Assembly (NCBI GenBank): GCA_963817525.1
Contig: CAWFOU010000001.1
Coordinates: 512,001-576,000 of the forward strand
Reading direction: 5' to 3'
Length of the DNA: 64,000 nt
Source of the DNA: an uncultured archaeon
Lineage (GTDB): Archaea > Thermoproteota > Nitrososphaeria > Nitrososphaerales > Gagatemarchaeaceae
Part shown: positions 22,960 through 41,892 of the stretch, piece after piece
How positions within the stretch are numbered: the first letter of the stretch is position 1
Layout: each line of letters begins with the position of its first letter
Notes under the pieces: model-generated
Databases searched by the model: none
Seen by the model: only the letters and a program-made list of their open reading frames with translations
What the model was told of the DNA's origin: nothing
Position numbers and translations under genes: made by a program

Positions 22960-23688
22960 GTGATAGTGGCCGAGCATCAAGCTGAAATAGTCTCGCCGGG
23001 AACGGGAGCGAACGCCATGAGCAGCGCCGGAAGGATACCCACTGGGATCGAGGGGCTCGATTCCCTGATAGAGGGGGGCCTCATCCGGGGCGATATGCAC
23101 CTCGTCGCCGGCGCGCCCGGCACGGGGAAGACGATCCTCGCCTCCACTTTCGCCTACAACGCGGTCACTACGCAGAAGGAGAAGGTCGTCTATGCCAGCT
23201 TCGAAGAGTCCACGGAGTACTTCGAGAGGAACATGAAGAAGCTAGGGATCGACCTGGCAGCGGCGGAGAAGACGGGCAACCTCACAGTTGTCGACCTGGA
23301 TGCGCTGAAGGGGAAGGAGCTGGAGAGCAACATCCAGTTGCTCATATCCGCCGTCAAGGAGACGAAGAGCACGATACTGGTGATCGACTCGCTCACCGCC
23401 CTCCTCCTCGCAACAGAGTCCAAGTTCGAGCTAAGGGCGTTCATGAAGAGCGTCTACAAGACCCTCAAGAACCAAGGCATCACCACGGTAATGACCATCA
23501 GCCAGACCCCAGGAATGGGGTTCGGGATCGAGGGGTTCGTCGCTGACTCGGTGATGCTCCTCGAGAACGTGGTCGAAAAGGACCAGTTCAAGACGCGCCT
23601 GATAATCCTGAAGATGAGGGGTACGGAGCACAGCAAGCGATACCACACGGTCGCGTTCGCGCCGAAGATGTCCGTTTCCAAGTACTAG
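22960..23688 (+). CDS. KaiC/RAD55-family ATPase
   Basis: TGIEGLD, GAPGTGKT, SFEE, LVIDSLT, KMRGT. Confidence 0.92.
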   Translation: MIVAEHQAEIVSPGTGANAMSSAGRIPTGIEGLDSLIEGGLIRGDMHLVAGAPGTGKTILASTFAYNAVTTQKEKVVYASFEESTEYFERNMKKLGIDLAAAEKTGNLTVVDLDALKGKELESNIQLLISAVKETKSTILVIDSLTALLLATESKFELRAFMKSVYKTLKNQGITTVMTISQTPGMGFGIEGFVADSVMLLENVVEKDQFKTRLIILKMRGTEHSKRYHTVAFAPKMSVSKY

Positions 23689-23909
23689 GCGCCTCCTCCC
23701 CTTGTCTGCAATCGCAGTCGAGGACGCGTCCTACGGTGTCATCGACTAGATTTCTGCTCCACTCGCCTTATAGCGCGAAGTTTAAGAAACTTGTAAGTTT
23801 CACGGGAAAAGGGCGAAAACATTGGCTCAATACGCCTCCGCGACGCATCCTTCGAGGACTTACCTCGACTCGTCTAGCGTAGCGGTCGAGCCGCGGAGGT
23901 AGGAAAGCG

Positions 23910-25311
23910 GTGGACTTGCTGGCTACGGTCGCCGCGACCCCGGACATCTTCCCCTACCTCCTATATCCGCTCGTCCACATCTTCACGCTCGAGATCACAG
24001 GCCTCTCGGCGTATTACATCTACAGGCAGAAGATAACGGCATACCAGTACACGAAGGGGCTCCTGCTCGCGGTCCACATACTATTCATGGGAGTAGTAGT
24101 CTTCGAGTTCCTCCGGACAGCCCTCCTCTCCCTCGACTTCATCACCGCATACACGATAGGCGGGACCACGCTGGTCCTCGCCGACGTTGTGCTGCTAACC
24201 CTCCTGGCGGTCACGGTATACCTCGTCCCTTCGGGGATTGGGAACAAGAGCATCGCCAAGCTGCTCTGGGAGAACAAGCCGCAGGTGGTCCTCTTCGCGG
24301 CCTACACCGCGTTCATCGTGTACGCCGCCGCCTACCTCAGCCTAGAGGAGCCGTTCACCAGCAGCTTTGCGTCCAGCGTGAGCGGAGCGCTGGTCCCCAT
24401 CACCGTCTTCAACTCCTACTATCTCGTCGCGCTCCTCATCGTCCTCGCCGTCTTCATCCTATATCCGTCCGCGCTACTGCTCCTTGCCTCGAGGAAGGTC
24501 AAGGACCCCTCGGTCGGGCAGGGTCCTGAGGGTCCTGCCGGTCATCTGGAGCGGCATCGGCGTCGACCTCCTGTTCTTCAACGGGTACCTGCTCTCGAGG
24601 AACTACGACGCGACGCCCTTCGGCTACCTCATCGCCTCGGTGGCGTTCGGGATAAGCGCGCTGGTGTTCAGGAGGGCGTCCCTCCTCACGGCGTTCTTCG
24701 AGCCGGTCAGGCCCACGGGGAAGACGGCCGCCGAGTTCCCGTTCACCGAGCGCCTCGGCGTCCCGTCCGACTTCCTGTCCGGGAGGAGCCTCCTGCTCGA
24801 GACCGACCCGTCCATGCCCTACGAGCAGATCGTCACGGACTTCGCGCGGCAGTCCATCTCGAACACTAGCACGGTCTATGTGTTCACCGCAAAGGGGAGC
24901 CCGATATTCAACGCCCTGAGCAAGACCGCCGGGGTGAGGTTCTACATTCTCTCGGCCAAGGTGTCGTACCCCAAGCCCGAGGAGAACGAGCCTTCCCAGA
25001 TACTCATCCCGAGCAACGACCAAGCTGTCATGCTCGACCTCATCGACAAGACCGTCTCTGCAGCGACCGCGCCTGCCCAAGTCGCCATCGTCTTCGACAG
25101 CATCTCCGACATGGTACTGTCGGCGGGGTTCGAGGCCACCTACAAGTTCGTCAAGCAGGTGAACGAGACCACCGGGAACGGCAGGACGTCCGCCCTGTTC
25201 CTGATGACCCTCGGGGCGCACGACGAGAAGGTCGTCAGCTTTGTGAGGAGCCTCTTCCCGACCCAGCTAGTGGACGACGCCAGCGGCCTCAAGATGACGC
25301 GCTCCCAGTAG
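23910..25311 (+). CDS. Multi-TM sensor fused to an inactivated KaiC-like (DUF835-like) domain; frameshift near 24515
   Basis: About 7 hydrophobic helices, then GRSLLLETDPS (eroded P-loop), IVFDSISD, GAHDEKVVSFVRSLF. Confidence 0.7.
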
Positions 25312-25375
25312 AAGCCCGGCCGACGGACGATCACTCCAAAGCACATATATCTCGGGTCGGCGACTCCGACAGCCG

Positions 25376-25684
25376 ATGGCGACCATTGCGGTCCCTGACC
25401 TGTCCACTGCATTTCTCGTGGCCGCGATAGTTCCCCTCATCCTGGGGTTCCTCGTGGGGACCGTGATAAAACAGACCCTCAAGGTAGGGGCGGTGATAGC
25501 GATAATCATCCTCGTGCTCATCTTCATCGGGGCCCTCACGCCCTCGCAGGTCATCGACCCGATCCTGAGCGCCTTCAAAGGCTCGGGCCCCCAGGTGCTG
25601 ACACAGGCGAAGCGGCTTTCGAGCTATCTGCCCTACTCCTCTATCACCTTCCTGATAGGGCTGGCCGTCGGCTTTTACAAGTAG
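25376..25684 (+). CDS. Small membrane protein (FUN14-like)
   Basis: LGFLVGTVIKQTLKV...GAL and C-terminal FLIGLAVGF. Confidence 0.55.
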   Translation: MATIAVPDLSTAFLVAAIVPLILGFLVGTVIKQTLKVGAVIAIIILVLIFIGALTPSQVIDPILSAFKGSGPQVLTQAKRLSSYLPYSSITFLIGLAVGFYK

Positions 25685-25687
25685 GCC

Positions 25688-25951
25688 CTAGAGCAGCCAT
25701 TCTTTCGGCGGGCCTTGGACACCGGCGCAGTGGACCTCGCCGGTCACCCTGCGTATGAAGGACGGGCACAGGAAGCACACCAAGAACCCCACCTCTCCGT
25801 TCACCACGGGGCAGTCGACGCTCTCTTTCTTCATCCTCGCAATGGCCTTGGCCCCGGCCACCCCCTTGAGCTGGGCGGAGACCTCCTTGGGTATCCTCTT
25901 GGGCTTGGCCGCCTCCCTGACCTTCACGACGAACTTGTAGTCGACAGACAA
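25688..25951 (-). CDS. Small basic 4-Cys (putative metal-binding) protein
   Basis: DCPV...CFLC...RRVTGEVHCAG; TTG start at 25951. Confidence 0.65.
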   Translation of the reverse strand: MSVDYKFVVKVREAAKPKRIPKEVSAQLKGVAGAKAIARMKKESVDCPVVNGEVGFLVCFLCPSFIRRVTGEVHCAGVQGPPKEWLL

Positions 25952-26001
25952 ACGCGTCTGGTATCGCCGATAGTCGGATAAAAGTTTGAGGAATCTGTCG
26001 T

Positions 26002-26670
26002 CTATCCGCCTATCGTGAACGGGATCCACTTCGGCGACAGGGGGGTCGCAGAGAGCCTGCTGACCATCATGAAACGGCCCTGCTCCGAGAACTTCATCCT
26101 GACCGTCCCGTCGGTCGCGTATTCGACGGACTTTACGGTCTTCTCGTCGTGGACCCCCTCCTCCAGGAGCACGAGCCCCGTCACCCCGCGCGTCTGGAGC
26201 TTCGTGTGGACGGTGTCGAGGAGCCTGAGCGCCCTCTCGGCGCCCCCGTAGTTGATCACGTCGGTGAACGAGTCTATCACCATCCTCGAGTCGTCCTCAG
26301 GCAGGACCCCGGCGTCGTCTATTATCGAGGTTATCCCGACGGAGACGTCGGTGAGGGACGCGAGGCTCGCCGAGTGCTTTGACTTACTCTTGCCCGACTT
26401 CCACGAGTAGCAGTCGAGGAAGTGCATGTGCTTCTCCAAGCCCTTGTTCCACTTGAAGGTCTCCATGGTCTCAAGCGCCCTGTCCTCCCCCTCGCTCGTG
26501 GCGACCAGGAACGAATCCTTCTTCGCCTCGATCCCGGTGTAGAGGAAGCGCTTGCTCAGGATGCTCTTCCCCGCGCCCGGGGGTCCCAGGACCAAGCAGA
26601 GAGAGCCCACGGGAATCCCCCCGAGCATCATCTGGTCCATGTCAGGGACCCCTATCGGTAGGCGCTTCAT
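26002..26670 (-). CDS. KaiC/RAD55-family ATPase lacking the C-terminal KxR motif
   Basis: GPPGAGKS, DCYSW, MVIDSFT, GVHDEKTVKSVEYATDG. Confidence 0.88.
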   Translation of the reverse strand: MKRLPIGVPDMDQMMLGGIPVGSLCLVLGPPGAGKSILSKRFLYTGIEAKKDSFLVATSEGEDRALETMETFKWNKGLEKHMHFLDCYSWKSGKSKSKHSASLASLTDVSVGITSIIDDAGVLPEDDSRMVIDSFTDVINYGGAERALRLLDTVHTKLQTRGVTGLVLLEEGVHDEKTVKSVEYATDGTVRMKFSEQGRFMMVSRLSATPLSPKWIPFTIGG

Positions 26671-26708
26671 CTAGTCCACAGGTGGATGTCCGGTCGTTAT
26701 TAAGAACC

Positions 26709-27443
26709 CTAGAAAATCTGTTCGGTCGGGAAGACCTCTATCCCCTGCTCGGTGATGCGATAGGGGTGGGGCTGGGTGTCGTGGGCGACCCCGCGCATCT
26801 TCTCGATACTGAACACCCGCGTGAAGGTCGACCCCGCCAGTATCTTCGACATCACGATGACCCCCTGGGTGAGGAACTCTTCGAAGACGTGGGGGCGCTG
26901 GAGCTGGGCGTCGTTGAGCTCGTCGACGAAGATGGTCGTGCACTTTGTCTTGTTGGCCGCGGCGATGAGGTCGAGGAATGCGATCCGCCTGGTGTACTCG
27001 TCGCTAAAGTGCACTATGAGGGTGGAGATCGGGTCGATCACGAGGCGGGTGGCCCCCACCTTCTTCACGGCGTCCGCCAGCGACGATATCATCGTTGAGA
27101 GCGCGAACTCATGGCCCCCCACCTCCGCCCCGCCAAGTTTGATCTTCGCCGGGAGGAGCCTTATCGGGGACGCGTCCACGATGGCTATCTTGCCCTCCTT
27201 GACCGGTTTCGCCAGGTCGACCCCCATTTGCTTTGCGTTTGCAAGCAGCCTTTCGGGGTCTTCGTCCATGGAGAGATATACGCCGTTCTCGCCCGAGGAG
27301 ACCCCGGATTGCAAGAATTGCAGGCTGAAGATGGTCTTCCCGCTCCCGGGGGCGCCTAGCAGGAGCACGGACGAGCCCGTGGGCACGCCCTTGCCGTCAA
27401 GAAGGGAATCGACTCCCTTGATCCCCATCGGCGCGTAGGACAA
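26709..27443 (-). CDS. KaiC/RAD55-family ATPase
   Basis: GAPGSGKT, SMDE, LVIDPIS, KMRG. Confidence 0.92.
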   Translation of the reverse strand: MSYAPMGIKGVDSLLDGKGVPTGSSVLLLGAPGSGKTIFSLQFLQSGVSSGENGVYLSMDEDPERLLANAKQMGVDLAKPVKEGKIAIVDASPIRLLPAKIKLGGAEVGGHEFALSTMISSLADAVKKVGATRLVIDPISTLIVHFSDEYTRRIAFLDLIAAANKTKCTTIFVDELNDAQLQRPHVFEEFLTQGVIVMSKILAGSTFTRVFSIEKMRGVAHDTQPHPYRITEQGIEVFPTEQIF

Positions 27444-27446
27444 GGT

Positions 27447-27935
27447 CTAGCTCGGGCTCTTCGGGAGGTGGCCCTTGAGCGTCTGCTCCCACGCCCTCGG
27501 ATTCTGGACCTCGAAGCGGGCTATCTCCACCCCTCCCTCGGTCTCGGTCTCGATCGTCAGCATGAGCGTGGAGTAGGTCTCGGACTCGTCGAGGAGGCCG
27601 GGATGGGAGTTGATTGGGCGCTCCCCTGAGCACTTCTTCTCATAGTCGTCCTTGTTCTTCCAGTTGGGGCGGCTCCTCCTGGACCGAGTGCCCGACTCGA
27701 CCGAGACGTCGATGACCGTGTCGATGGCGATGGACATTACCCTCCCCGTCGAGCTCAACCTTCCCGTCTGAAGGACCCCGGAATACCGGGGCTCGTAGGC
27801 GTGGAAGATGAGGTATCTCGGGTTTAGCATGAGCTTTCCGACCATCACCTGGGGATAGGAGGCAAGGTGGCCCTCATAATAGACGAAGGTGCCCGGGGCG
27901 AGGTTCGAGGTCTCGAGGGTCTTCTGGCTCGTCTC
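27447..27935 (-). CDS. Hypothetical protein, possible PH-like domain (start uncertain)
   Basis: Frame is open upstream of the listed ORF: YYEGHLASYPQVMVGKLML...LIF...SIAIDTVIDVSVE. Confidence 0.5.
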   Translation of the reverse strand, partial: ETSQKTLETSNLAPGTFVYYEGHLASYPQVMVGKLMLNPRYLIFHAYEPRYSGVLQTGRLSSTGRVMSIAIDTVIDVSVESGTRSRRSRPNWKNKDDYEKKCSGERPINSHPGLLDESETYSTLMLTIETETEGGVEIARFEVQNPRAWEQTLKGHLPKSPS

Positions 27936-28401
27936 ACTCGCCCCCGGCCTGCTGCTCGATTGTGAGCTCCCTTCTCTTCTTCGCGGCGAAGGGCTCGAAG
28001 GCGGATATCGACTCGACGTCGTGGATGCCCCTCGCGGCGACCAGGCAGCCCCCTAGCGTAAGGACCGCGCACGCCCCCGCAAGGGGGACCGGGAACAGGA
28101 GGCCGACTAACCCCGTCTCGGCGGCCAGGGTCCCCGACGCCCCGAGGAGAAGGGTCACCTGGCTAAGGAAGGAGCGGCTCCTATGCGCCGAGAAGATAAG
28201 CAAAACTGCGCTCAGCGAGAGGCCCGAGACGGCCAAGTAGAGCCACTGGGCGGAGAGGACGACGGTCGCGACGGTCGTGACCATGAAGATGAAGCTGCCG
28301 GCGAGAGAAAGGGCGAAGCCCCTGAGCTTCCTGTTCCTGCCTTCCATCTCCGGGTATAGCTCCGGGTACATTGGCCTTCGGTAGCGCACCCGAAACTTCA
28401 C
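27934..28401 (-). CDS. Membrane protein (about 4 TM)
   Basis: Hydrophobic helices; first gene of the apparent operon that includes two KaiC genes. Confidence 0.65.
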   Translation of the reverse strand: MKFRVRYRRPMYPELYPEMEGRNRKLRGFALSLAGSFIFMVTTVATVVLSAQWLYLAVSGLSLSAVLLIFSAHRSRSFLSQVTLLLGASGTLAAETGLVGLLFPVPLAGACAVLTLGGCLVAARGIHDVESISAFEPFAAKKRRELTIEQQAGGE

Positions 28402-28539
28402 CGCGAGTGTTTAGAAGTTTAGACTTCTAGGTAAGAAACTGGCTCACTTTGCGAGCATCAGCCAGAAACGAGCCCGGGCTGCCCTCCTTTCGGGGAATCT
28501 ACAGTCGCCAGTGATTGGAGATTAGGACTAATTTCCGTG

Positions 28540-29106
28540 CTACGATATGGAGTGCTGGTGGAGCTTGAAGTTTGCGAGCCTTGCTGCAAGAAAAGCGCCG
28601 GTGGCCGCAGCGGAAATAATCAGCAAGTCTTGGTTGGAGAACCATCCCAGCCCGAGTTCATATTGGAAATTTGTGACGTGCATGCCAAGGAATCCGGGGC
28701 TCACAAGGGTGAGGCCGACCTCGAAAACGAGCATGATTGAAGACCCCGCTGTTGCAAGTCGCTTCAAGACCTGTAGGCGACCCTTTTTTCGCCAGATAAC
28801 TGTGAGACTCACCATCAATAGGACGAAGTAGATCAGGGCAAATGCGTCGAGGAAGGGTATTACGAGGAAAAGACCCATGGGGAAGAAGGGTCTGAACAAT
28901 GCCCAGTGGATGTTCCAGACCGTTTGGAGCAAGTTATTGAGCGCAGTCGCCCCTTGAAGGTTGTACCAGGGATTTCCTCCTGCCTCGCTGACCAGGTAAT
29001 CGTCTCCTATGGTTGCGAGCAATCCAAACACGGATATTCCGAGAACCGCGAAGGCTAGAGCATCTGGGATGGCTGCGCGCAAAACAACCCTTGCCTCTTT
29101 GTCCAT
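28540..29106 (-). CDS. Hypothetical membrane protein
   Basis: 4-5 hydrophobic segments; atypical codon usage by eye. Confidence 0.6.
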   Translation of the reverse strand: MDKEARVVLRAAIPDALAFAVLGISVFGLLATIGDDYLVSEAGGNPWYNLQGATALNNLLQTVWNIHWALFRPFFPMGLFLVIPFLDAFALIYFVLLMVSLTVIWRKKGRLQVLKRLATAGSSIMLVFEVGLTLVSPGFLGMHVTNFQYELGLGWFSNQDLLIISAAATGAFLAARLANFKLHQHSIS

Positions 29107-29269
29107 TTTTTCGCTCTCCCATCCAATCGCTCGATTCGTCTTTCCAAAACTTAGATTTGGGTAGATTAGGGTTGTGAACCAGGAAACCATCGGGATTTCG
29201 ATCATTTTGAGGCAGACCACCCACTCGGGGTCTAGCCAACAATCAGAAGTTTAGACTGTTGAGTCGATT

Positions 29270-29298
29270 CGGAGGCGCAATTAACCCTAATGCACGGC
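29270..29298 (+). repeat. Inter-gene repeat copy 1
   Basis: CGGAGGCGCAATTAACCCTAATGCACGGC. Confidence 0.7.
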
Positions 29299-29373
29299 AA
29301 CCCACGCTTCCCTCGGCGCTTCGAGGTTTGTTCCATCGGGTTCAATAGCCACCGACCTCATCATCAATCTTGA

Positions 29374-31080
29374 GTGACGATGAAGAGAAGCTCAATCGTC
29401 GCCCTTGCCGTGGCATTGGCAGCGGTTGTTGCGGTCGTTGCAATCACCGCGATGCCTCCGAGCTCTAGCTCAAGTACGGCTTCGTCTGTTTCGTCCAGCC
29501 AGTCTGGTACTGCCACCCCAATCACAGGCCAGCTAGGCTCCTGGAACCGCACGAACAGCTATCCGCTTCCCGTTGTCGCCATGGGGTGCGTGACTTCAGA
29601 GGGATTCGCCTACTGCGTAGGAGGGGGCGACGAGGCCGCGCCAAGGGGTTCTGGCGGCTTGAACAACACCTACTACGCCTCCCTATCGGCTTCAGGCCTT
29701 GGTCCATGGATCAGAACCGCTGACTATCCGTCGTCGATACTGAATCCTAGCTGCACCGCAACCTCCGGGTACATTTACTGCGTGAGCGGCACTGCCGGCC
29801 AGACGAGCAGCACCAGTCTCAATCTCACCGGCGATGTCTTTTACGCTCCTCTGTCGCCGACAGGCATCGGCCGGTGGGCAAAGACAACTCCATTCCCAAA
29901 CCCGATAAGCCCGCCTCGTTGTGTCGTAGACTCGGGCTTCATCTACTGCGTCACCCAGAATTCGACCGGTCCCTCCTTGCCCGCGGGCAACACCTACTTC
30001 GCGCGCCTATCATCTGCAGGGGTCGGCAAGTGGACGGAATCCACGCAGATCCCGAGTAACCCTCTGGGCTGCGTCGCAAGCGGGGGGTACGCCTACTGTT
30101 TCGGCGGAGCCTGTCCTCCCTTTCCGACCCAGTGCACGACTCCTTCGTATTACGCCCCGCTGTCTTCTCAGGGAATAGGCCGCTGGACTCAAACCTCTAG
30201 TTTACCGACGGCGGCGCAGGACATCTACGCGGCTGGCGATTCCTACCTTTACTTCTTCGCCACCCCGAACCCTCTCGTGGCCCATCTTTCGTCGAGCGGG
30301 ATTGGGTCGTGGAACGCCACGACACCATATCCTGAAGAAAGCCCGGCAGGTTGCGTTACGAGCGGCGAATACATGTACTGTATAGGCAGTGACAGAATCG
30401 ATTTCACGCCATCACAAAACGTCTATTTCACGAGGATGGGCTTCGTTGGTGCGCCGAATAGCGGGGCGAGCGGAGTCGGTGCCTCAACGGTCGCGTCCGA
30501 CGGACTCAAGTTATCGACCTCGATAAACGCGACCGAGCTTAACGTAGGACAGAGGCTGGGTGTCTCGATTTCGTTGTACAATACACTTGCCGGAGTCAAT
30601 ACAGTCAATACATCAGCGAACTGGCCATTCAATGGAGTTGCCCTGCAACTGTGGCCGTATTGCTATGGCGTCCCTGCGCGGATAGCCATCCTCGAAGGCA
30701 ATTACAGCATGCAGGAACTTCTGGCGGTTACGAACGTCACCTTCCAATTCATGTGCTCGGGAGGTCCAGCGTACATCGATTCCGCCGTCTTTCAGCCGAT
30801 GAGCGATCAGGTCAACCTCACAGGGACCTATTGTGCGCCGCCCGGCCCGCCTGCCGGCTGCGCGAACGGGACCGACGGCCCGTATTTTCTATCTCTCAAT
30901 TTCACGACTAGCGGCTACTACGACCTTGGAAACCTCTCCCAACAGGCCTTCGAGCCGGTCATTAGTCAACCAAGCGGGCCACCTGTCCCTACCATCTCCT
31001 TCACTCCAGGAATCTACACAGTCGCGGTGGCGGACGAGTGGGGGCAGGCTGTCGTGCTTCACTTCACCGTGACCAGCTGA
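29374..31080 (+). CDS. Secreted/anchored protein with six Cys-containing Kelch-like blades plus a C-terminal domain
   Basis: N-terminal hydrophobic helix; repeated W..T..YP......C....G(Y/F).YC...YYA.LS..G.G.W. Confidence 0.8.
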   Translation: MTMKRSSIVALAVALAAVVAVVAITAMPPSSSSSTASSVSSSQSGTATPITGQLGSWNRTNSYPLPVVAMGCVTSEGFAYCVGGGDEAAPRGSGGLNNTYYASLSASGLGPWIRTADYPSSILNPSCTATSGYIYCVSGTAGQTSSTSLNLTGDVFYAPLSPTGIGRWAKTTPFPNPISPPRCVVDSGFIYCVTQNSTGPSLPAGNTYFARLSSAGVGKWTESTQIPSNPLGCVASGGYAYCFGGACPPFPTQCTTPSYYAPLSSQGIGRWTQTSSLPTAAQDIYAAGDSYLYFFATPNPLVAHLSSSGIGSWNATTPYPEESPAGCVTSGEYMYCIGSDRIDFTPSQNVYFTRMGFVGAPNSGASGVGASTVASDGLKLSTSINATELNVGQRLGVSISLYNTLAGVNTVNTSANWPFNGVALQLWPYCYGVPARIAILEGNYSMQELLAVTNVTFQFMCSGGPAYIDSAVFQPMSDQVNLTGTYCAPPGPPAGCANGTDGPYFLSLNFTTSGYYDLGNLSQQAFEPVISQPSGPPVPTISFTPGIYTVAVADEWGQAVVLHFTVTS

Positions 31081-31087
31081 TCAAATC

Positions 31088-31123
31088 CCCCGGCGGAGGC
31101 GCATTGAACCCCTATGCATGGCG
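31088..31123 (+). repeat. Inter-gene repeat copy 2
   Basis: CCCCGGCGGAGGCGCATTGAACCCCTATGCATGGCG. Confidence 0.85.
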
Positions 31124-31157
31124 GCTTTGCACACCACTAGTGAACCCGTGCAGCTCT

Positions 31158-32105
31158 CTACCCTGCCACAACGGTGGTAGAGACGGTAGTCTCGCCCAGG
31201 GATCCCCATGCGGCCGCCACGAACGTCAGGACGTAGGCATCGCCTCTCACCACCGAGAGCCTCCCCGGCCCGTCAATCGCCAACTCATAGGAGACGCTGA
31301 ACCGGTCTGGCGCGCCGGGAGAGAGCGTGTCGTGTCCGACTCCCGCTGTCCCGATATATGTCCCGTTGACCAAAAAGTCGACCTCCTCGATTTGGCTGGT
31401 CGAGTTGAACGACAATGCCGCGGACAGCGTTGGTACGCTCCCGGACAGCAGCGAGGCGCCTCGTAGCGACACTATGGGGGCGGGGGCTGTCGCCGTAGTG
31501 GTGAACCCTCCTCCTTGAGGCTCGCGCAAGGACGTGGTCGAGCCGTCAGCAGCTATGACCGTGCACGTCAGGCCGCCCTGGGGCATGTAGTACACGCCGG
31601 AGCCCCCAGTGAAGATGGCTGTGGTGTTGGCCTCCTGCCCCGGTTGTACCGGGTTACTCGGCGATACGTCCAGCTGAATCGTCGTCGCGCTCGCATCCGT
31701 GATGAGGCCCTCGTCGGTGGCGTTGGCGGCGACGAAGCCGACCGCCTCGACGCAGACGGCGGCAATCTGCACCGGGGAGCCGCCGGTGTTGTTCCAGCCC
31801 ACGCTCAGCACCGAGGGGCCTGTGCCCACCGCACCCGTCCCCACCAGGCTGGCGGCCGCATCGCCGGTGAGCGGGATGGCCGAGGAGTTGGAGCAGAAGC
31901 GCGAGACGAACGTGCCGTTCACGGCGTACGCCACGGGCACAGATTGGACTGCGCTGGTCACGCTCTGGCCAGCGGTACTGGACGATTCCACGCTGGCGCT
32001 TTCGGTCAAGCTCGAGACTTGTCCGCCTCGCGGGGCGGCAATCGCCACAACGCCAATCGCCACTACAAGGATCACGACTACCGCGACGGCGAGTCTGGGG
32101 CGCAC
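31158..32105 (-). CDS. Secreted/anchored beta-rich protein
   Basis: N-terminal hydrophobic helix, Ser/Thr linker, several N-x-S/T sequons. Confidence 0.7.
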   Translation of the reverse strand: MRPRLAVAVVVILVVAIGVVAIAAPRGGQVSSLTESASVESSSTAGQSVTSAVQSVPVAYAVNGTFVSRFCSNSSAIPLTGDAAASLVGTGAVGTGPSVLSVGWNNTGGSPVQIAAVCVEAVGFVAANATDEGLITDASATTIQLDVSPSNPVQPGQEANTTAIFTGGSGVYYMPQGGLTCTVIAADGSTTSLREPQGGGFTTTATAPAPIVSLRGASLLSGSVPTLSAALSFNSTSQIEEVDFLVNGTYIGTAGVGHDTLSPGAPDRFSVSYELAIDGPGRLSVVRGDAYVLTFVAAAWGSLGETTVSTTVVAG

Positions 32106-32157
32106 AACTTTCCGAAATGGTGCGCAACGCGATTTATAGTTTTGTCCGACAGCCACG

Positions 32158-32194
32158 CCCCGGCGGAGGCGCAATGAACCATTATGCGCGGCGA
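32158..32194 (+). repeat. Inter-gene repeat copy 3
   Basis: CCCCGGCGGAGGCGCAATGAACCATTATGCGCGGCGA. Confidence 0.85.
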
Positions 32195-32279
32195 AGCCTT
32201 CTACCTCATTTTAGACAAGAGCTAGCGGAGGCTGGAGCGTTCGGACAAAGCCATTAATCATACAGGTTCACACTAGACC

Positions 32280-32555
32280 ATGATGAAGAGACGGTCAAAG
32301 GCGGCAATACTCCTTGTCGCCGCAATTGCTTTCGCCTTGGGCGCGCTGATTCCCGTGCTTCCGGGTCCGGGTTCCGCCTGCGGCGGGCCGCCTGGACCGG
32401 GCGGGCCCGGGTGCATCCCCGACCAAAAGCTCTCCGTGACCGCAGCCTATCTCGGCTTTGGCTCAGGCAGCTCCTACAACGGGACCTTCTACGGCCTCTG
32501 CGCGCCGCCCAACTTCGAAGGGCTGACCCACCTTTCCCCATGCGGGGCGCAATGA
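32280..32555 (+). CDS. Small secreted Gly/Pro/Cys-rich protein
   Basis: Signal-like N-terminus and 4 Cys; stop codon lies inside repeat copy 4. Confidence 0.55.
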   Translation: MMKRRSKAAILLVAAIAFALGALIPVLPGPGSACGGPPGPGGPGCIPDQKLSVTAAYLGFGSGSSYNGTFYGLCAPPNFEGLTHLSPCGAQ

Positions 32556-32572
32556 ACCTCTATGCGCGGCGA
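32536..32572 (+). repeat. Inter-gene repeat copy 4
   Basis: CCCCATGCGGGGCGCAATGAACCTCTATGCGCGGCGA. Confidence 0.85.
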
Positions 32573-32623
32573 CAAGCCCTTCCCGATAATCCAGAACGCG
32601 GCGGATGGGCAAATCAGAATCGG

Positions 32624-32911
32624 ATGATGACCATGGAAGAATTGCGTAGCGCTCAGAGCGCGGGCTTGTTCTTTGCCTTTGGACTCCTTGGTCTGGAAAT
32701 TTTCACATTCAAATTACTTGGTGCGTTGGGAATTCTCGACATAGCCCCTTACCTGATCTATTGGGACGGATTGGGGGCCTTACTCCTCTTCATCGCCTTG
32801 GTTGTTGTAAACGGCTTCATAGCCTATCAAATAGTGAAGAAGCTTGGCTTCAGATTCGATGTCCCGAGGGTCGACACCCCTAAGAACTCAGAGCGTGGCC
32901 CATGGACTTGA
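32624..32911 (+). CDS. Small membrane protein
   Basis: Two hydrophobic helices; AT-richer by eye. Confidence 0.5.
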   Translation: MMTMEELRSAQSAGLFFAFGLLGLEIFTFKLLGALGILDIAPYLIYWDGLGALLLFIALVVVNGFIAYQIVKKLGFRFDVPRVDTPKNSERGPWT

Positions 32912-32938
32912 CAGAACCCTTTCTTGGGTTCTGGTAAC

Positions 32939-33127
32939 TCAACTGGTGCTCGACATCTCGCTGCTAACCCTCTGGTGCTCTTTCCTACGACGAGAAATGC
33001 GTCCCAACGTGTAAATCGAAACGTCTGTGACGATTGAGGCAGAGAATAGTAATGGATTGAATGTGTTAGAGGAGCTCATTGTTACTACCGCCAAGACCCA
33101 CAACAAAGCCCCCCATAGCAAGACCAA
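32939..33127 (-). CDS. Small 2-TM protein (start uncertain)
   Basis: Two hydrophobic segments followed by a basic tail. Confidence 0.35.
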   Translation of the reverse strand: MVLLWGALLWVLAVVTMSSSNTFNPLLFSASIVTDVSIYTLGRISRRRKEHQRVSSEMSSTS

Positions 33128-33299
33128 GAACCGCCAGCTTGAAGCTTCTTGTGTAGCGGTCAGACATCACTAGACTTCTCCCTTGAAGTTGAGTGTGCCG
33201 CGTTCTGAATCAGCGTCATCCATTTGTTCTGACCCTCGATTCCTCGATTCCTCGATTCCTCCCCAGATAGAGTCATCGTTCTTGAAGGGCAGTCGGCCC

Positions 33300-33797
33300 C
33301 TAAAACGCCGTGAGGATATGGAGTATCTTGCCTATTTCTCCGAAGAAGGACCGCCCCAAAAGAAATGGGGGGGTCGGGGAGTAGGCCTTATGATTTGCAA
33401 GCGACAACAAGACTGGACATCCCACCGCGGCAAATCGCCTCGTCAGCGACTCTTTCCGCACCCAATTCTTCAACTCTTCTGTAAAGTCGTCCGATACCAT
33501 CACTCCGAGAGCCAAGAATCCCATAGGACCCGGGCCCTTGTCCAACGCGTAGCTCAAGCTCTTCTCGCCATAATCCTTCGCGGTCGGGATATCAACCCCT
33601 TCAATCGAAGTGGCCAAAACGTACCGCGTCAATACGCCCCCAAGCTTCAAGACAAGACCCGTCTTTCTTCCCACGACCCTTATGTCGTATCTTATGCCGT
33701 ACTTACTGAGAACAACGCCCCGCTCCGTACTGTATCCCTTATCGCCTAAACGCGTAGCGAGTCCGTCGAAGAATTCCCCCAAGGCGCTATCGTCCAA
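33300..33797 (-). CDS. Hypothetical protein (possible degenerate restriction-endonuclease-like fold)
   Basis: LGDKGYSTERGV...YDIRVVGRK pattern. Confidence 0.5.
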   Translation of the reverse strand: MDDSALGEFFDGLATRLGDKGYSTERGVVLSKYGIRYDIRVVGRKTGLVLKLGGVLTRYVLATSIEGVDIPTAKDYGEKSLSYALDKGPGPMGFLALGVMVSDDFTEELKNWVRKESLTRRFAAVGCPVLLSLANHKAYSPTPPFLLGRSFFGEIGKILHILTAF

Positions 33798-33977
33798 GCT
33801 CTGGATCCCACGTTCGTAATTGGTCTTCTGAACCGTCCGTCATGAATGCGCTCTTTTCCCTGAAAGGGTTCTTCGTGCCTCCGGGCATGGTCTACGTCAA
33901 GAAAAGTGTTCTCAATCCAGTCGGCCGGCGACGTAGCTCGGGTGAATCGACGGCGTCGAGGCGCCTAGAGCACTGCA

Positions 33978-34709
33978 CTATCCGTCCACGTCGTTCTGCC
34001 CGAGTGGGGATATCCTCTGGTAGAACGGGTCGCCCTCGTCAGTATCGGCCTTTCTGATCAGGCCCATCCCCACAAGCTTGTCGCAGCCGGCGACGACGTC
34101 GTCAGGGTCGAGGTCCAAATGGTACCTCTCTTCGACCTCTTCCTCTATGGTCAGCGCCCCCTTCTCTTGCATGTCCCCCAAAGCGCGATATATCCGCCCC
34201 TCCAGCGTCCCTTCTGAGGGGGCGCCGGGGAACTCGATGAGCTTGACCTGGCCGGCCTTGAGCTCTCTTATCATCTGCGCCCAGTCGTTGAGGTTCTTCT
34301 TTCTCGACGCTCCCGTGATCTGCTCGACGAACTCTGTCGAACAAGTCTCGCCGGATTGGATGGTGTACTGGAGCTCTAGCTTGGGAGCTATCGCGTCCTT
34401 TCCTCCATGGCCTTCGACTCGCACTATCTGCGAAAGCGGGATCTCGAGGCCTTCGGAGTCATTGCCAATGGAGTCTAAACCCTCGATATCGTCGATGAAG
34501 AGGGACTTGTAGGTGAAAATCCCCACTGGGAGGTCGACCTCCTCTTCGGCCGCCTTGTGGGCGTAGATGAGCCGTTGGTTGGTCAAGACGAGAGTCCCCT
34601 CGGTCTCGCCAAAGCCGAAGGCGCCTTCGACCTCTTTCTTGAAGCCGGTCCCCCGATGGATGACGGCCTGCTCTTCTGCGAGCATCACTTCGGACTGGCC
34701 CTCTGACAA
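33978..34709 (-). CDS. PH-like domain protein with C-terminal winged-helix-like region
   Basis: GTLVLTNQRLIY...EIPLSQIVRVE; C-terminal DDVVAGCDKLVGMGLI. Confidence 0.6.
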   Translation of the reverse strand: MSEGQSEVMLAEEQAVIHRGTGFKKEVEGAFGFGETEGTLVLTNQRLIYAHKAAEEEVDLPVGIFTYKSLFIDDIEGLDSIGNDSEGLEIPLSQIVRVEGHGGKDAIAPKLELQYTIQSGETCSTEFVEQITGASRKKNLNDWAQMIRELKAGQVKLIEFPGAPSEGTLEGRIYRALGDMQEKGALTIEEEVEERYHLDLDPDDVVAGCDKLVGMGLIRKADTDEGDPFYQRISPLGQNDVDG

Positions 34710-34916
34710 ACGTAGACAAACGTGTGACTCGTAGAGTCTATTAAAAGAGATGAGGCCGTGTCGACGTTCGTAGCGCGCCGTTAAGCCGAGTTGCACCACA
34801 ATAAGGTCCTAGAGGCCTATCACCCTAAGACCCACCAGAGCCATTCGGTTTCTGATTCTACGTATGGAAAAGCCCGTAAATACTGATTTTTCTATACACA
34901 CTGGTATGGTCGAATC

Positions 34917-35333
34917 TTATCCCAGCCATGAAACCGTGTTGAGTCGATTCGGGCTATTCACCTTCGACTCGATGGGCACGAGCTCGGGAGAGATCATCCC
35001 CTGCAGTTCGATGTACTTCGCCACGAAGCCCGTCCCCTTGGGCGTGGCGAGGAACACTATGTTGCCCTCGTCGTGGACGGAGTCCAATAGGCCCGTCTCC
35101 GTGAGCTTCTCTATCATCCTCGTCGCGACTATGCTGTTCACGTTCGCGAAGAGCATGATGTGGCTCTTGCTGGAGTGCGACCTGCAGCAGTTCAGGACGT
35201 CTGCCATCACGTCTATCCTCCCCCTGTTCTTCGCATGGGACGGCTTTGTCGGCCTTTGCTCCGCGGCTTCCGTTGTTGCGAGGCCGTGCTGCGCCTGTGG
35301 CTGTGCTCCCCGTGCCTGCTCGAATGACTGCAT
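34917..35333 (-). CDS. Archaeal winged-helix transcription regulator (HTH_45-like)
   Basis: RGRIDVMADVL...KSHIMLFANVN...LTETGLL...ATPKG. Confidence 0.8.
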   Translation of the reverse strand: MQSFEQARGAQPQAQHGLATTEAAEQRPTKPSHAKNRGRIDVMADVLNCCRSHSSKSHIMLFANVNSIVATRMIEKLTETGLLDSVHDEGNIVFLATPKGTGFVAKYIELQGMISPELVPIESKVNSPNRLNTVSWLG

Positions 35334-35791
35334 TGCAGTGCAGGAGAAGAAGAGGACGCGATTAGAACGGGTGTCGTGCAACGGAGGGGCGAGCGACCCG
35401 GAGGCCTGTCTGTAACATCGGGCGTTGCACCGAACCCCTCGGAACGACGGCGGGGGACCAGCTGGGCGAATACGGCTCCAACATCGCATCTCCCAGGCGC
35501 AGGCGGGCGTATTCATGACGTCTGCGTTCTCATGGCAAGGAATGACGCCATCGCACTTGGCCTCAGCGCCGAAGTGTCGCGGACATCGTCACCCGGACCC
35601 GTCGCCTATTCGCGCGACATGACTCTGTGGAAGAATTGCCAGATCGCTGCGCAGGATTCAGCCTAGGTCGATTCGGCCATCGACCCCTTCGTCGATGATG
35701 CTCTTGATGTTGACGTTCCTCTCGACCTTGCAGGCGCTCGTCGCGACGAAGCGGTCAATGTAGCTGCCGCTCGGAGGCGTGGCTTTGTCCG

Positions 35792-36725: not shown

Positions 36726-37502
36726 CTAGCCTATTCTGGCGGTGGTCTCTACGACCAGGCCGTCGGACTGGACCACGTGCCTGAAGCTCTTGGACTTGGG
36801 CAAGACTCTACGGAGCTTCTGTATGTCGACTTCGCCCTCCGTCTGCTGGAAGCCTTCGATGAACTTGAAGCTCAAGACCCCGTCGACCAGGTTCTTCAGG
36901 AATGTCACCTGTCTCTCGTCGTGCGCTCCCTGAAGCATGAGCACAAAGTGGACGCCCCCGTACTTGTGGACTGCGTTCACCCAGAACAGCATCAAGTCGT
37001 TTATCTCCTGGGAAGTGTACTGGTTCATGAGGTATGAGATGTTGAGTATGCTCCAGCGCTCCTCCTTGAGCCTGGTGAGGAAGTCCCTCGTGAGGCTCCC
37101 CAGGCCGCCTGAGGACAGGTTGAGGATCTGCTCCGTGGGGACGCGGGGCATAAGGCCCACGAGACCCTGGAGCGACGGGGACAGCGGCCTCACGAAGACG
37201 AGGCTTCCGTCGTCCACGTGGCTGCGGTAGTCCCACCCGTAGAGCTCGGCGTCCTGCTCGATCTCCGTGCTGGAGATCTCCGAGGTGTAGTAGACCGCCT
37301 TGCCCTTCCTCTCGAGGTGGCTGAAAATGGCCTGCTGGGCGAAGGTCGGATAGTACGTGCCCGGCAGCCCTGTTAGGAGGTACACGCTGTCCTCCGGGAC
37401 GCCTCCCCCCGTGACGAACTCCAGTCCGGGGATGCCGAGGTTGCTGAGCTTTACCTGATTTTCCGCCGAGACAGCGTCAGATCGCTGGCCTGTATAGGCC
37501 AA
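36726..37502 (-). CDS. KaiC/RAD55-like protein with degenerate Walker A/B
   Basis: GIPGLE, GLPGTYYPT (no Lys), GAHDERQV...LVDGVL, KLRR. Confidence 0.85.
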   Translation of the reverse strand: MAYTGQRSDAVSAENQVKLSNLGIPGLEFVTGGGVPEDSVYLLTGLPGTYYPTFAQQAIFSHLERKGKAVYYTSEISSTEIEQDAELYGWDYRSHVDDGSLVFVRPLSPSLQGLVGLMPRVPTEQILNLSSGGLGSLTRDFLTRLKEERWSILNISYLMNQYTSQEINDLMLFWVNAVHKYGGVHFVLMLQGAHDERQVTFLKNLVDGVLSFKFIEGFQQTEGEVDIQKLRRVLPKSKSFRHVVQSDGLVVETTARIG

Positions 37503-38619: not shown

Positions 38620-39141
38620 CTACTGGCTGCTGCCGGCGGTTATCGTGAAGGAAAACAGCCCGCCCGTAGCAGTGACGATTTTCACCGTGTTGGTCGACCC
38701 CCCGACGATTCCTGTTGGAGCGCCGGTGTAGCCGGTGCCTCCTGTCCCGGTACTAGCGAGCCCGAGTCCTGCACAGTCACTATCGACCGTAAGAGTGCTG
38801 CAACCCGATTGAGCGCCTTCTAGCGTCAGCGCTTGCCCGTTGACGTATATCGAGTCTATCGTCGCAGAGGAGCCTCCAGTATTCTTGAATGAGATGACGA
38901 TGCATGTACCGTCCGCGGTAACGCCGGTCAGTGAGCCGCAAGTCGTACCACTCGACGTGCTGAATGCATACGAAGTTAGCTCAATCTGCTGCGCCGTCTG
39001 CTGCCCTCCGCCCTGGGTAAGGTTCCCTACCGTCCCGCTGACGAAGACGTACACGATGACACCCGCTGCGACTGTGATAGCAATGAGGAGGAGCGTCGCG
39101 ATGATGGGCGACACGCCACTAGGCGGCCTGCGGTAATCCAT
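38620..39141 (-). CDS. Archaeal type IV pilin
   Basis: RRPPSG|VSPIIATLLLIAITVAAG; KNTG...IDSIYVNG; VKIVTATGG. Confidence 0.88.
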   Translation of the reverse strand: MDYRRPPSGVSPIIATLLLIAITVAAGVIVYVFVSGTVGNLTQGGGQQTAQQIELTSYAFSTSSGTTCGSLTGVTADGTCIVISFKNTGGSSATIDSIYVNGQALTLEGAQSGCSTLTVDSDCAGLGLASTGTGGTGYTGAPTGIVGGSTNTVKIVTATGGLFSFTITAGSSQ

Positions 39142-39163
39142 ACCCTCAGACTTCCCCCTTGCG

Positions 39164-39190
39164 CATATAACTCGGCTGAAGAAGTTGTTC
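39164..39190 (-). promoter_or_regulatory. Dyad motif plus TATA box
   Basis: GAAGAAGTTGTTC (39178-39190), 7 bp, TTATATG; 37 bp from ATG. Confidence 0.7.
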
Positions 39191-39395
39191 AATTCGAGGG
39201 TGTCGATGACTCGCCGCTCGCGAGTACATCACTTCGAGATCCGGACTCTGGGCCAGGGAGACCTTGACGAGGAATGACGTGGTCCATGGTGCTGGAGTCC
39301 TAGACGACCCGCGTTCCCATATGGCCGGGAGGGTATCCTGAACTCTGACGGTTCGATTGGGACGAGAAAACAAGGAAGGAGAAGGCATCGGACCT

Positions 39396-40061
39396 TTACC
39401 CAGTCCTGCCAGCTACGACTGTGAATACTGACACTCCGCCGTTCGCCGTCACGACTTTGATCGTGTGGCTCGTTCCGGAGGTCGCGGCTGAGTTGAGCCC
39501 GAAGAGCAGCTGGACTGAGGACAGAGGTGCCAACGTCAGTGTCGGGGTCTGCCCGCTAGCAGTGTTGAGGCAAGTGACGGTGGCGCATGTGGTCGCGGCC
39601 GCCTCAGTGCCGCAAGCCGTAGCGATGCCTGACGCTGGTTGGGAAGTGCCCAAGATGTACGCGGTGATCGTGGTGGACGGCGGCAGGAGAGCGAAGCAGG
39701 CGCCTCCCGAGGTGGGCACCACGAAGTATTGTTCGTACGCTGGTGTGCCGGTCGCGTACCACTGTGTGAGTGCAGTCCCGTCGAAGTAGATCGAGCTTAT
39801 TGTTATCGATGAGCTGCCGGTGTTCTCGAGGAACGCCTCGCCCACGACTCCGTTGGACGACACCGACGTGCTGGCTACCCCCGTGAAGCTGTAAGCCTGA
39901 AGTTGGAGTTGCTGAGAGACTTGGCTTCCTCCCCCGCTCGTGAGGCCGCCGGCCAGGCTGTTGACGTAGACGTAAACGATGATGCCCGCGGCCACTGCTA
40001 TTGCGATGAGCAGGAGCGTTGCGATGATCGGTGAGATGGCTCGTCTGTGGGTGAACTTCAT
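39396..40061 (-). CDS. Archaeal type IV pilin
   Basis: HRRA|ISPIIATLLLIAIAVAAG. Confidence 0.9.
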   Translation of the reverse strand: MKFTHRRAISPIIATLLLIAIAVAAGIIVYVYVNSLAGGLTSGGGSQVSQQLQLQAYSFTGVASTSVSSNGVVGEAFLENTGSSSITISSIYFDGTALTQWYATGTPAYEQYFVVPTSGGACFALLPPSTTITAYILGTSQPASGIATACGTEAAATTCATVTCLNTASGQTPTLTLAPLSSVQLLFGLNSAATSGTSHTIKVVTANGGVSVFTVVAGRTG

Positions 40062-40063
40062 GT

Positions 40064-40528
40064 CTATCCGGTCCTCCCTGCGATCACTGTTATCACAGAG
40101 GTGCCTCCAGAGGTGGTCAGGATCTTGATGGTGTGGCTCGTGCCTGCCGAAGGTGCCGTGCCCGGAGTCAGGGTGAACGAGCAAGTACCCGTTGGAGCTA
40201 TTGATACGGTGCCTATGGCGCAAGTGGCCGGGTTTTGATTGGTCAAGCTCCCGCTTGGGATCAAGGCGCCGTCGAAGAAGATCGAGTTTATCGTGACAGT
40301 GGTCGAACCCACGTCTCTTATGGTCAGGGTCACGCCGCTTCCGATTGTGCCGTAGTTGTATGCGTCCATGGAGAGCTGATCTGATACCTGCTGGCCGCCG
40401 CCGCTCGTGAGGCCGCCGGCCAGGCTGTTGACGTAGACGTAAACGATGATGCCCGCGGCCACTGCTATTGCGATGAGCAGGAGCGTTGCGATGATGGGGT
40501 CAACTGCCTTTCGAGCAGTCATTTTCAT
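40064..40528 (-). CDS. Archaeal type IV pilin
   Basis: ARKA|VDPIIATLLLIAIAVAAG. Confidence 0.9.
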   Translation of the reverse strand: MKMTARKAVDPIIATLLLIAIAVAAGIIVYVYVNSLAGGLTSGGGQQVSDQLSMDAYNYGTIGSGVTLTIRDVGSTTVTINSIFFDGALIPSGSLTNQNPATCAIGTVSIAPTGTCSFTLTPGTAPSAGTSHTIKILTTSGGTSVITVIAGRTG

Positions 40529-40551
40529 GAGCCTGGAAAACCCCTGGACGG

Positions 40552-40578
40552 TATATATTGCGGGTGAACAACTTCTTC
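40552..40578 (-). promoter_or_regulatory. Dyad motif plus TATA box
   Basis: GAACAACTTCTTC (40566-40578), 7 bp, ATATATA; 38 bp from ATG. Confidence 0.7.
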
Positions 40579-40776
40579 AATTGAGTCCGGTGTATCGCAG
40601 AGTCGGGAAGTGTGGAGGCGAGTGGTCTTCGTTGCGGACGCTCGCCAGGACAAATCTAACTTCGAACCAGGTCTGACCCATTTATGCACAGTAGGCGCCG
40701 GAACCCGGACCGTGGATCCATCCCAGATGAGCAAGGCGACAGAGAGTTTGAACTTGGGCTACGGTGAGCCGCGATT

Positions 40777-41385
40777 CTAGCCCGTTCTGCCTGCGGAGAC
40801 GGAGAAGACGTTGGTTGCGCCAGTGCTGCTTACGACCTTGACGGTGTGGCTGGTGCCCGCGACGGGGGCCCCGCCGGAGCTGAATGTGATCACGATCTGC
40901 CCGGTGGTCCCGGCCGCGTAGGTCAGGTTGGTGGTCGCAGCGCTGAAGCAGAACTGCCCTGTCCCTCCGTTGACGCTGCTACAAGTAGTGGTATAATCAA
41001 GGAGCTCCGTAAGCGTTGGAGCCGTGTACACAAAGTCGTTCGCCGCGCTGAGGGTTATAGCGCCAGTGGTTTGGGTGGTAAGGGTCAGGAGGGTCCCATC
41101 GAAGTATATCGCGCTGATCGTCGAGGACGACGAGGCTGAGTTAAGAAGGAATATCTGCAGAATCTGCCCCGAGCACGTGCAGGATCCGCCCGTAGATGGG
41201 CTGGCGGCGAAGTTGTAGCCTTGCATCTGGAGCCTCTCGGTGGTCTGTTGCCCACCGCCTTGGGTCAGGCCGCCTGCGAGGCTGTTCACGAATACGTATA
41301 CTATTATGCTCGCGGCAACGGCGATAGCGATCAGTAGCAGGGTCGCAATGATGGGTGAGATTGCCCCGCGCTTTTGGAACTTCAT
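40777..41385 (-). CDS. Archaeal type IV pilin
   Basis: KRGA|ISPIIATLLLIAIAVAAS. Confidence 0.9.
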   Translation of the reverse strand: MKFQKRGAISPIIATLLLIAIAVAASIIVYVFVNSLAGGLTQGGGQQTTERLQMQGYNFAASPSTGGSCTCSGQILQIFLLNSASSSSTISAIYFDGTLLTLTTQTTGAITLSAANDFVYTAPTLTELLDYTTTCSSVNGGTGQFCFSAATTNLTYAAGTTGQIVITFSSGGAPVAGTSHTVKVVSSTGATNVFSVSAGRTG

Positions 41386-41389
41386 TTGT

Positions 41390-41869
41390 CTAGCCTGACC
41401 TCCCTGCTATCAATGTGAACGTGAAGGTTCCTCCATCCGATGTCACGACTCGAATCAGGTTTGCCGTCCCGCTAACCGCGGCTGTGGGTAACGTGAGTGT
41501 GAGCTGGGTGTATTGACCCGCCATGCAGGTCGAAGTGGCGCCAGTCGTGCACGTCCCTGAAGCGAAGGCCGGAACATTGCAGAGTGTGCCGGTGGCGGTT
41601 TGGCACAGATTTCCGTTGTAGTAGATGTAGCTGATGACAACCGAGGAGCTCCCCACGTTACGCAGCACCATTATTGGCTGAGTCAAGGTCGAAAAAGTGT
41701 ATGCGTCCATGGAGACCTGGTCAGCCACCTGCTGCCCACCCTGCTGGGTGAGGTTCCCCGTGAGACTGTTGACGAAGACGTAGACGATTATGCTGGCCGC
41801 GACCGCTATTGCGATCAAGAGGAGCGTCGCAATGATGGGCGAGACTGCCCTTCGTCTCGTGAATCGCAT
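41390..41869 (-). CDS. Archaeal type IV pilin
   Basis: RRRA|VSPIIATLLLIAIAVAAS. Confidence 0.9.
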   Translation of the reverse strand: MRFTRRRAVSPIIATLLLIAIAVAASIIVYVFVNSLTGNLTQQGGQQVADQVSMDAYTFSTLTQPIMVLRNVGSSSVVISYIYYNGNLCQTATGTLCNVPAFASGTCTTGATSTCMAGQYTQLTLTLPTAAVSGTANLIRVVTSDGGTFTFTLIAGRSG

Positions 41870-41892
41870 AGGGTGAAGTGAGCGTTTCAGAA

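Follow-up and report, generated by a model that had tools for sequence, protein, structure and literature searches.

The window analyzed here is a 64,000-nucleotide (nt) stretch of DNA from a genome bin (G000) of an uncultured archaeon of the family Gagatemarchaeaceae (contig CAWFOU010000001.1, positions 512,001 to 576,000), and it holds four direct copies of a short repeat separated by single genes. Comparison with other genomes, mostly of the same family and likewise designated by G numbers, leaves little doubt that this repeat is the 3′ strand of the bulge-helix-bulge (BHB) processing stem of 23S rRNA and that it also serves as a cassette border. Cassettes bordered by such stem-strand repeats may enter behind the 23S rRNA gene by homology-driven recombination or repair of the host, without a dedicated integrase, a reading to which we give not quite even chances. 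As far as tested, the 23S-stem cassette array is a categorically new kind.

The largest array of G000 starts at the Rfam-defined end of the 23S rRNA. Upstream of the 23S gene lies an inverted match that pairs with the first copy to form a helix, a 3-nt bulge, a 4-bp helix, a second 3-nt bulge and another helix, and this BHB fold was computed at −54.7 kcal/mol versus −54.8 kcal/mol for the best fold. In all nine fetched regions that have an assembled operon, the first site directly adjoins the 23S end. In addition, the repeat consensus of each genome tracks the host's own stem, and a stem change in G027 is mirrored on the opposite strand. The BHB stem is the cut site of the splicing endonuclease, and pre-rRNA cleavage and ligation are established in the available part of PMC10351888. 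Set against the archaeal pre-23S stem treated there, the repeat is its 3′ strand, the first copy being the working one; the stem is usually present once per operon, whereas here it is reused as a DNA cassette border. The 23S genes themselves are interrupted in several genomes: G000 has ~680 extra bases, G007 a group I intron, and G032 several insertions bearing open reading frames (ORFs).

The initial annotation had likened the repeat to the dif site of Xer recombinases, a resemblance that the 23S stem strand explains base by base. A role of the repeats as dif-like Xer sites, regulator boxes, or promoters is hardly credible: copies carry up to 70 to 160 nt of the 23S 3′ end, the 11-6-11 geometry is lacking, and the content between sites differs among genomes. 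Furthermore, the four scanned of the 16 tyrosine-recombinase-like ORFs in G000 stay far below XerA grade (XerA_Arch best 73 bits, cutoff 220).

Over 375 sites, the kept core is GGCGCAATGAACC, with 86 to 98% conservation per position, and bulge positions 6 and 8 are the most variable within it (45 and 44 of 375 sites). Homology to the host's own 23S end on the left spans ~6 to 70 nt in 142 sites and 100 to 160 nt in three cases, and homology to the trailer on the right spans 0 to ~100 nt. The GCGCA..TGCRY dyad first described for the window copies is not a fixed feature in this comparison: the right arm is present in 180 of 375 sites, at 1 to 5 nt from GAACC. The view that the repeat is not attC-like gained support: no self-hairpin is conserved across sites, and an alignment of 33 sites folds, on the given strand only, to 3 pairs with no covariation. 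By eye, homologous cassettes diverge most in the 10 to 30 nt beside the core, often with host-type flanks.

The repeat recurs across the family. A hidden Markov model (HMM) search of the G000 contigs (best reversed-sequence score, 8.7 bits) yielded 27 to 28 copies with the duplicate contig C13 excluded, and an 18-nt pattern with one mismatch allowed matched 29 of 36 other family genomes, 24 of which have at least three copies by hand count. The same pattern was found in none of 24 genomes from other families of the order, which shows only that their stem sequence differs. For an exact 21-mer, the named records among the at least 80 matches listed of >162 are Nitrososphaerales-type archaea, including "Candidatus Gagatemarchaeum stordalenia." One exact match among the at least 80 listed lies in a bin labeled Acidimicrobiales, the rest being archaeal, and that contig is probably mis-binned. 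Viral contigs gave no match to an exact 19-mer. In genus g9, the native site is the sole copy in some complete genomes (one exact 12-mer each in G030 and G069). Contig C13 is a second copy of window positions 26679 to 34939, 99.5% identical and with the same four repeats, and several small G000 contigs duplicate parts of C1 and C7, indicating that the bin mixes strains.

Arrays reach 70 sites over 97 kb. Measured core to core, 350 units are 900 bp long at the median, in agreement with the earlier statement that the repeat is not CRISPR-spaced. Counted with a crude ORF caller, 176 of 339 units across the family hold one ORF and 100 hold two; thus, the rule of one gene per cassette, seen in the window, applies to only part of the units family-wide. 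Single-gene cassettes are antisense in 55 of 176 cases, and cassettes carry promoter-like boxes. Nor is the cargo limited to surface-protein genes, as had been supposed, since the G007 array, inspected by eye, includes toxin-antitoxin-like pairs, methyltransferase-like genes, and other small genes. Core mismatches increase with distance from the 23S gene (pooled rho = 0.29, P = 1.4e-6, n = 274). The right flanks of neighboring sites are no more alike than those of random pairs (P = 0.88), indicating that a new repeat is not copied from its neighbor.

These properties bear on an RNA route, in which EndA would cut read-through repeats, RtcB would circularize the cassette RNA, and reverse splicing and reverse transcription would return it to DNA. 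The conserved core is centered on the bulge that EndA would cut, the two bulge positions are its most variable ones, and, as cited above, pre-rRNA is known to be cleaved and ligated at the BHB stem. This route is very unlikely, since paired positions show no wobble bias (C>T 26 versus G>A 27 in 245 sites), and since antisense genes and promoter-like boxes are carried by the cassettes. Moreover, reverse transcriptase was found in only 8 of 61 family genomes and is absent from the five array-rich genomes G000, G009, G018, G021, and G027.

Full-length cassette pairs, counted as such when homologous over ≥85% of their length (72 partial pairs excluded), keep their orientation in 37 of 37 cases, and the neighbors of homologous cassettes differ in all 35 testable cases upstream and all 34 downstream. 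At an orthologous locus far from rRNA, the genes enclosed by the same pair of sites differ among G000, G012, and G022, so that gene content varies between repeats, as the initial annotation had anticipated; G009 has five genes and no detected site there. Judged from these sequence comparisons, the core-to-core cassette is the moving unit. Duplicating insertions in G000 also occurred at unrelated targets, namely, the 3′ end of a winged helix-turn-helix (wHTH) gene and a TATA box.

A second type of array is present at C1:773832-794400 of G000. Its blocks of genes include no integrase, and between them stand ten direct copies of a tRNA-Gln 3′ end that bear a T-arm mimic. Nested within this array, on the other strand, is a single 23S-type cassette; a toxin-antitoxin-like block recurs at C1:83439-84197.

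A mobile-element tyrosine integrase could act in trans on the core, as in tandem accretion at tRNA 3′ ends. The 16 recombinase-like ORFs and the tRNA-Gln array of G000 would fit this, as would the available parts of PMC6563490, which describe short thaumarchaeal attachment (att) sites, with a median of 17 bp, and arrays formed through site reuse. It is nonetheless quite unlikely. A quick tree showed no tyrosine-recombinase clade common to G000, G007, G009, G015, and G021 (G027 has only a contig-end fragment), arm spacing varies and about half of the sites lack the right arm, variable host-type flanks are at odds with one fixed crossover, and no rRNA flank is among the 68 thaumarchaeal targets in those parts of PMC6563490. 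Of the proposal that the recombinase is encoded elsewhere, it stands that none lies next to the window repeats, whereas no shared tyrosine recombinase emerged in array genomes. The expectation of one near other copies came down to a C8 recombinase adjoining two sites, which was rejected as the cognate enzyme (its clade is patchy, and its neighbor is a tRNA-like stretch). No serine recombinase (resolvase) matches were found in G000.

In the window, the pattern of the initial annotation has four exact matches, all on the + strand, and 0 of 100 shuffles matched it, even with two mismatches. Repeat finding on the window recovered the same family, and a sequence-only model found no fifth site. The repeats and cassette genes are as follows.

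29274 to 29298, + strand: repeat 1, a copy of the 23S processing-stem 3′ strand, its left part truncated by the island junction
29380 to 31080, + strand: cassette 1 gene, 566 amino acids (aa), N-terminal signal-like stretch, predicted Kelch-like blades
31098 to 31122, + strand: repeat 2, with convergent genes on both sides
31158 to 32105, − strand: cassette 2 gene, ~315-aa Ser/Thr-rich secreted-like orphan, TATA-like box at ~32132 to 32140
32168 to 32192, + strand: repeat 3, followed by ~45 nt resembling the rRNA trailer of relatives' first sites
32280 to 32555, + strand: cassette 3 gene, 91-aa secreted-like orphan, stop codon inside repeat 4
32546 to 32570, + strand: repeat 4, a pattern match

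The earlier description of this block was accurate: the four repeats share one orientation, each gap between successive copies holds a single ORF, repeat 2 sits between convergent genes, and repeat 4 gives the TGA stop of the 91-aa ORF. The ORF at 32627 to 32911 has no downstream repeat, since repeat 4 is the last in the window. A Pfam scan of the three cassette genes gave nothing better than an E value of 0.02, and protein atlas searches with cassette genes 1 and 2 gave no usable match (the best for gene 2, 0.80, is a lead only). The cassette 1 protein is predicted with low confidence to be Kelch-like, with repeated four-strand blades; a paralogue matches Kelch_1 at an E value of 1e-4 and the protein itself at 0.04, and its single-sequence structure model is poor (pLDDT, 47).

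This block lies within an island of ~6.5 kb, with 13-bp and 15-bp target duplications, in the 3′ end of a wHTH gene. Seven relatives have no island, with 28425 joined straight to 34937 (junction sequences for six), and G020 carries a short, different insert at that position. A contig from one of four soil runs shows the same island-skipping joint; no single-cassette skip was seen in contigs of the four runs, at a depth too low to be meaningful. An intact 28-bp copy of the empty site is present inside the island, which therefore reads as two insertions, X1 and X2. Its parts are the following.

28413 to 28425, + strand: left copy of the 13-bp target duplication, the wHTH gene 3′ end in the empty allele
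28426 to 29244: insertion X1, carrying a 226-aa membrane-protein-like ORF (28540 to 29220, − strand) with no Pfam match
29245 to 29272, + strand: intact 28-bp empty-site copy (13-bp plus 15-bp duplications), fused to repeat 1 via a shared CGG
29273 to 34937: insertion X2, left end within repeat 1, right end not at a repeat
32627 to 34799: remainder of X2, with small ORFs at 32627 to 32911 (+), 33300 to 33797 (−), and 33978 to 34799 (−) and no further repeat
34938 to 34952, + strand: 15-bp target duplication, right copy, within the wHTH gene 3′ end
34917 to 35516, − strand: wHTH gene (PF14947), last codons replaced

X2 starts inside repeat 1 and ends 2.4 kb past repeat 4. No terminal inverted repeat was seen by eye at the island ends, no dedicated search having been run, and the relatives compared show no cassette turnover in place within the block. 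Since the block was gained or lost inside the 6.5-kb island, the four-repeat block is, on this comparison of alleles, a transported satellite of the main array. Serial capture at the repeat, as first proposed, is thus in line with the exchangeable cassettes (the 37 pairs and the orthologous locus), whereas this block itself moved as one island. In Thaumarchaeota, elements integrate in protein genes at their 3′ ends and replace the stop codon, according to the available parts of Krupovic et al. 2019 (PMC6563490), and the window island resembles them in both respects.

Other islands were observed as well. A 17-kb island of G000 (C1:349881 to ~367000) holds secreted-protein genes and three 23S-type sites in opposing orientations, is absent from five relatives, and shares 76 bp at its end with window positions 34823 to 34898. 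A short duplication accompanies another island, at C7:589666-595180, whose target is a TATA box with a pyrH-like gene on one side and an eRF1-like gene on the other; at the same locus G022 has tandem islands with a box copy on each. Within the window island, an 8-bp unit is present in three tandem copies at 33234 to 33260.

How might cassettes enter? The proposed course starts from the native site. This site directly follows the 23S 3′ end, has the upstream spacer strand as its pairing partner, and is followed by arrays of core-to-core cassettes whose decay grows with distance. A first cassette would be foreign DNA joined into a break at this site, the joining duplicating both flanks variably (0 to 160 nt of the 23S end and 0 to 100 nt of the trailer). 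DNA from kin could then anchor on the long 23S match, with the short repeat as the second crossover, an exchange that would add the donor's first cassette, fix its orientation, and rewrite the repeat flanks to the host type. Insertions would survive only where the first copy still pairs and rRNA processing is retained. Blocks of cassettes may later travel to other loci within larger islands, as the window illustrates. Homology-driven capture accounts for the polarity, the fixed orientation, the variable host-type flanks, and the lack of a universal enzyme; no candidate enzyme is present in all array genomes. That the enzymology is host homology-driven recombination anchored on the 23S gene is a tentative view, with the balance somewhat against it.

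Several observations weigh against host recombination. Stretches of 13 to 50 bp are short for RadA, no break-making activity has been identified for such capture, and G000 has no DprA matches. Polarity is clear in G000 and G021 and not in G009, G015, G018, and G032. Homologous cassette pairs are not mutually independent, and low-identity pairs may represent gene families. Mapping of crossovers by shared derived bases failed for want of such bases. Above all, both 13-bp core halves are retained whichever flank is long: 81 of 123 left-anchored sites span the whole core, and nearly all right-anchored sites extend to core position 3 or further left. This looks like specific recognition rather than plain homology; the constant retention of both halves is poorly explained by host recombination, and a Cas1-like enzyme is the stronger explanation there.

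The candidate is a giant Cas1-like protein of 820 to 920 aa with a winged-helix-like part, Cys-rich motifs, and a C-terminal Cas1 domain. It might act in trans as an integrase of gene-sized pieces, duplicating the 13- to 15-bp core in the manner of CRISPR spacer acquisition or casposon insertion, which we consider somewhat unlikely. Its profile matches solved Cas1 structures (E value, 4e-6; second match, 6OPM), and, by alignment, the catalytic E, H, and D positions of a Cas1-family integrase are present. Within the order, the gene is restricted to the array-bearing family: 18 of its 81 genomes have it, against none of 121 genomes from the other families, and in genus g9, which is poor in repeats, it is present in 1 of 39. 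Pfam Cas1 matches only 12 of 71 family genomes. Distant relatives of the protein have 1100 to 2000 aa, some with a DEAD helicase. The gene belongs to a module of three (~414 aa, 147 aa, and the giant 850 to 920 aa), found in G000 at C7:660958-665737 and C2:334-5041. In 8 of 16 loci, 5 of them independent, the module touches a site or has one no more than ~1 kb away (at the stop codon in G032), and sites flank it left and right once the loci of G009, G022, G012, and G000 are taken together. The 13- and 15-bp duplications of the window island, with one end within the core, would also suit such an enzyme.

The association is incomplete, since 8 of the 16 loci have no site in 12- to 20-kb windows, three second copies have none within 1.5 kb, and the C7 copy of G000 is split near its 3′ end. 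Genomes that carry the gene have more sites (Mann-Whitney P = 3.5e-4; medians, 16 versus 2 by hand count), a correlation confounded by kinship and assembly quality. A deeper profile also failed to find the gene in G018, G010, G003, G002, and the single-contig G007 with its 42 sites; the gene was never within any fetched 23S-linked array, and it may itself be cargo. A fixed-length duplication fails to explain flanks of up to 160 nt, and adjacent sites are not more alike than random ones, unlike a copied CRISPR repeat. Should the Cas1-like protein be the enzyme, it would represent a natural example of a site-specific Cas1 integrase that inserts gene-sized pieces. The bolder picture, a third programmed gene-capture platform beside integrons and CRISPR, with the giant Cas1-like integrase, the stem strand as repeat, the rRNA operon as leader, whole genes as spacers, and a self-moving cassette, is unlikely. 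An operon at C7:505022-506413 of G000 encodes a minimal ATP-dependent DNA ligase (279 aa) and a minimal PolX (180 aa); the ligase is present in 25 of the 36 genomes compared from the family and in 1 of 24 from outside it and was not found in G032. This operon is a candidate for error-prone joining, a second and weaker lead than the giant Cas1-like gene.

The array works like a sedentary integron and fails the tests for IntI plus attC, dif, CRISPR, and retroelements. Like sedentary integrons and clusters of attC sites lacking integrases (CALINs), including archaeal integrons, as portrayed in the available parts of Ghaly et al. 2022 (PMC9668308), it has long polar arrays of one- and two-gene cassettes, toxin-antitoxin-like and orphan cargo, individual mobility, and integrase-less satellite clusters. 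It differs in that the border is a copy of an rRNA stem strand, not a self-folding attC, one-third of single genes are antisense, and flank lengths vary. No IntI was found: TIGR02249 gave at best 20 bits against a cutoff of 265 in the same four G000 ORFs, and none lies beside arrays in crude ORF lists of G000, G007, and G032. The main text of PMC9668308 mentions neither rRNA nor Nitrososphaer-.

In origin, the array is closest to att arrays at tRNA ends, one of which G000 has. Tandem accretion at tRNA or gene 3′ ends in Thaumarchaeota shares direct repeats that copy the target, short att sites or target site duplications, and units added at one end, whereas here units are ~0.9 kb without integrase, reach 70 per array, and use a 23S trailer absent from the 68 targets listed in the available parts of PMC6563490. 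CRISPR, casposons, and Asgard aCas1 elements likewise have direct repeats, polar growth, and inserts in either gene orientation. A solo Cas1-like gene by some sites is a further likeness, and distant homologues carry helicase, HTH, and Cas1, as do the aCas1 elements in the available parts of PMC10691335. In contrast to CRISPR and casposons, gene-sized inserts here keep their orientation relative to the repeat, and repeats are not neighbor copies. The terminal inverted repeats and protein-primed polymerase of casposons were not seen at the island ends or among the module ORFs, where no dedicated search was made, and, unlike in casposons and aCas1 elements, the Cas1-like gene is not wherever arrays are (G007 and G018 have none). 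pdif/Xer modules are also gene modules between short related sites; here XerC/D-type geometry and an XerA-grade enzyme are lacking, and all sites within an array are in direct orientation.

No description of a 23S-anchored array was found in the literature searched, outside which lay supplements (those of PMC6563490 and PMC9668308 may bear on target lists) and most subscription papers; the main text of PMC10640624 mentions no 23S, repeat, integron, or cassette. In the Gagatemarchaeaceae, which are abundant soil archaea, arrays of 40 to 100 kb place much of the accessory genome downstream of the rRNA operon, and an essential RNA-processing signal is reused as a DNA border. With it, an integron-like system would have evolved separately from IntI and attC. 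How cassettes first arise is an open question for integrons; since the cassette flanks here still hold pieces of the target, the array gives a view of this process.

Elsewhere in the window, a tandem family of six archaeal type IV pilin-like genes, their N-terminal motif read by eye, occupies positions 38620 to 42512, and several KaiC-like ATPase genes lie near it, at 22960 to 27443 and 36726 to 37502.

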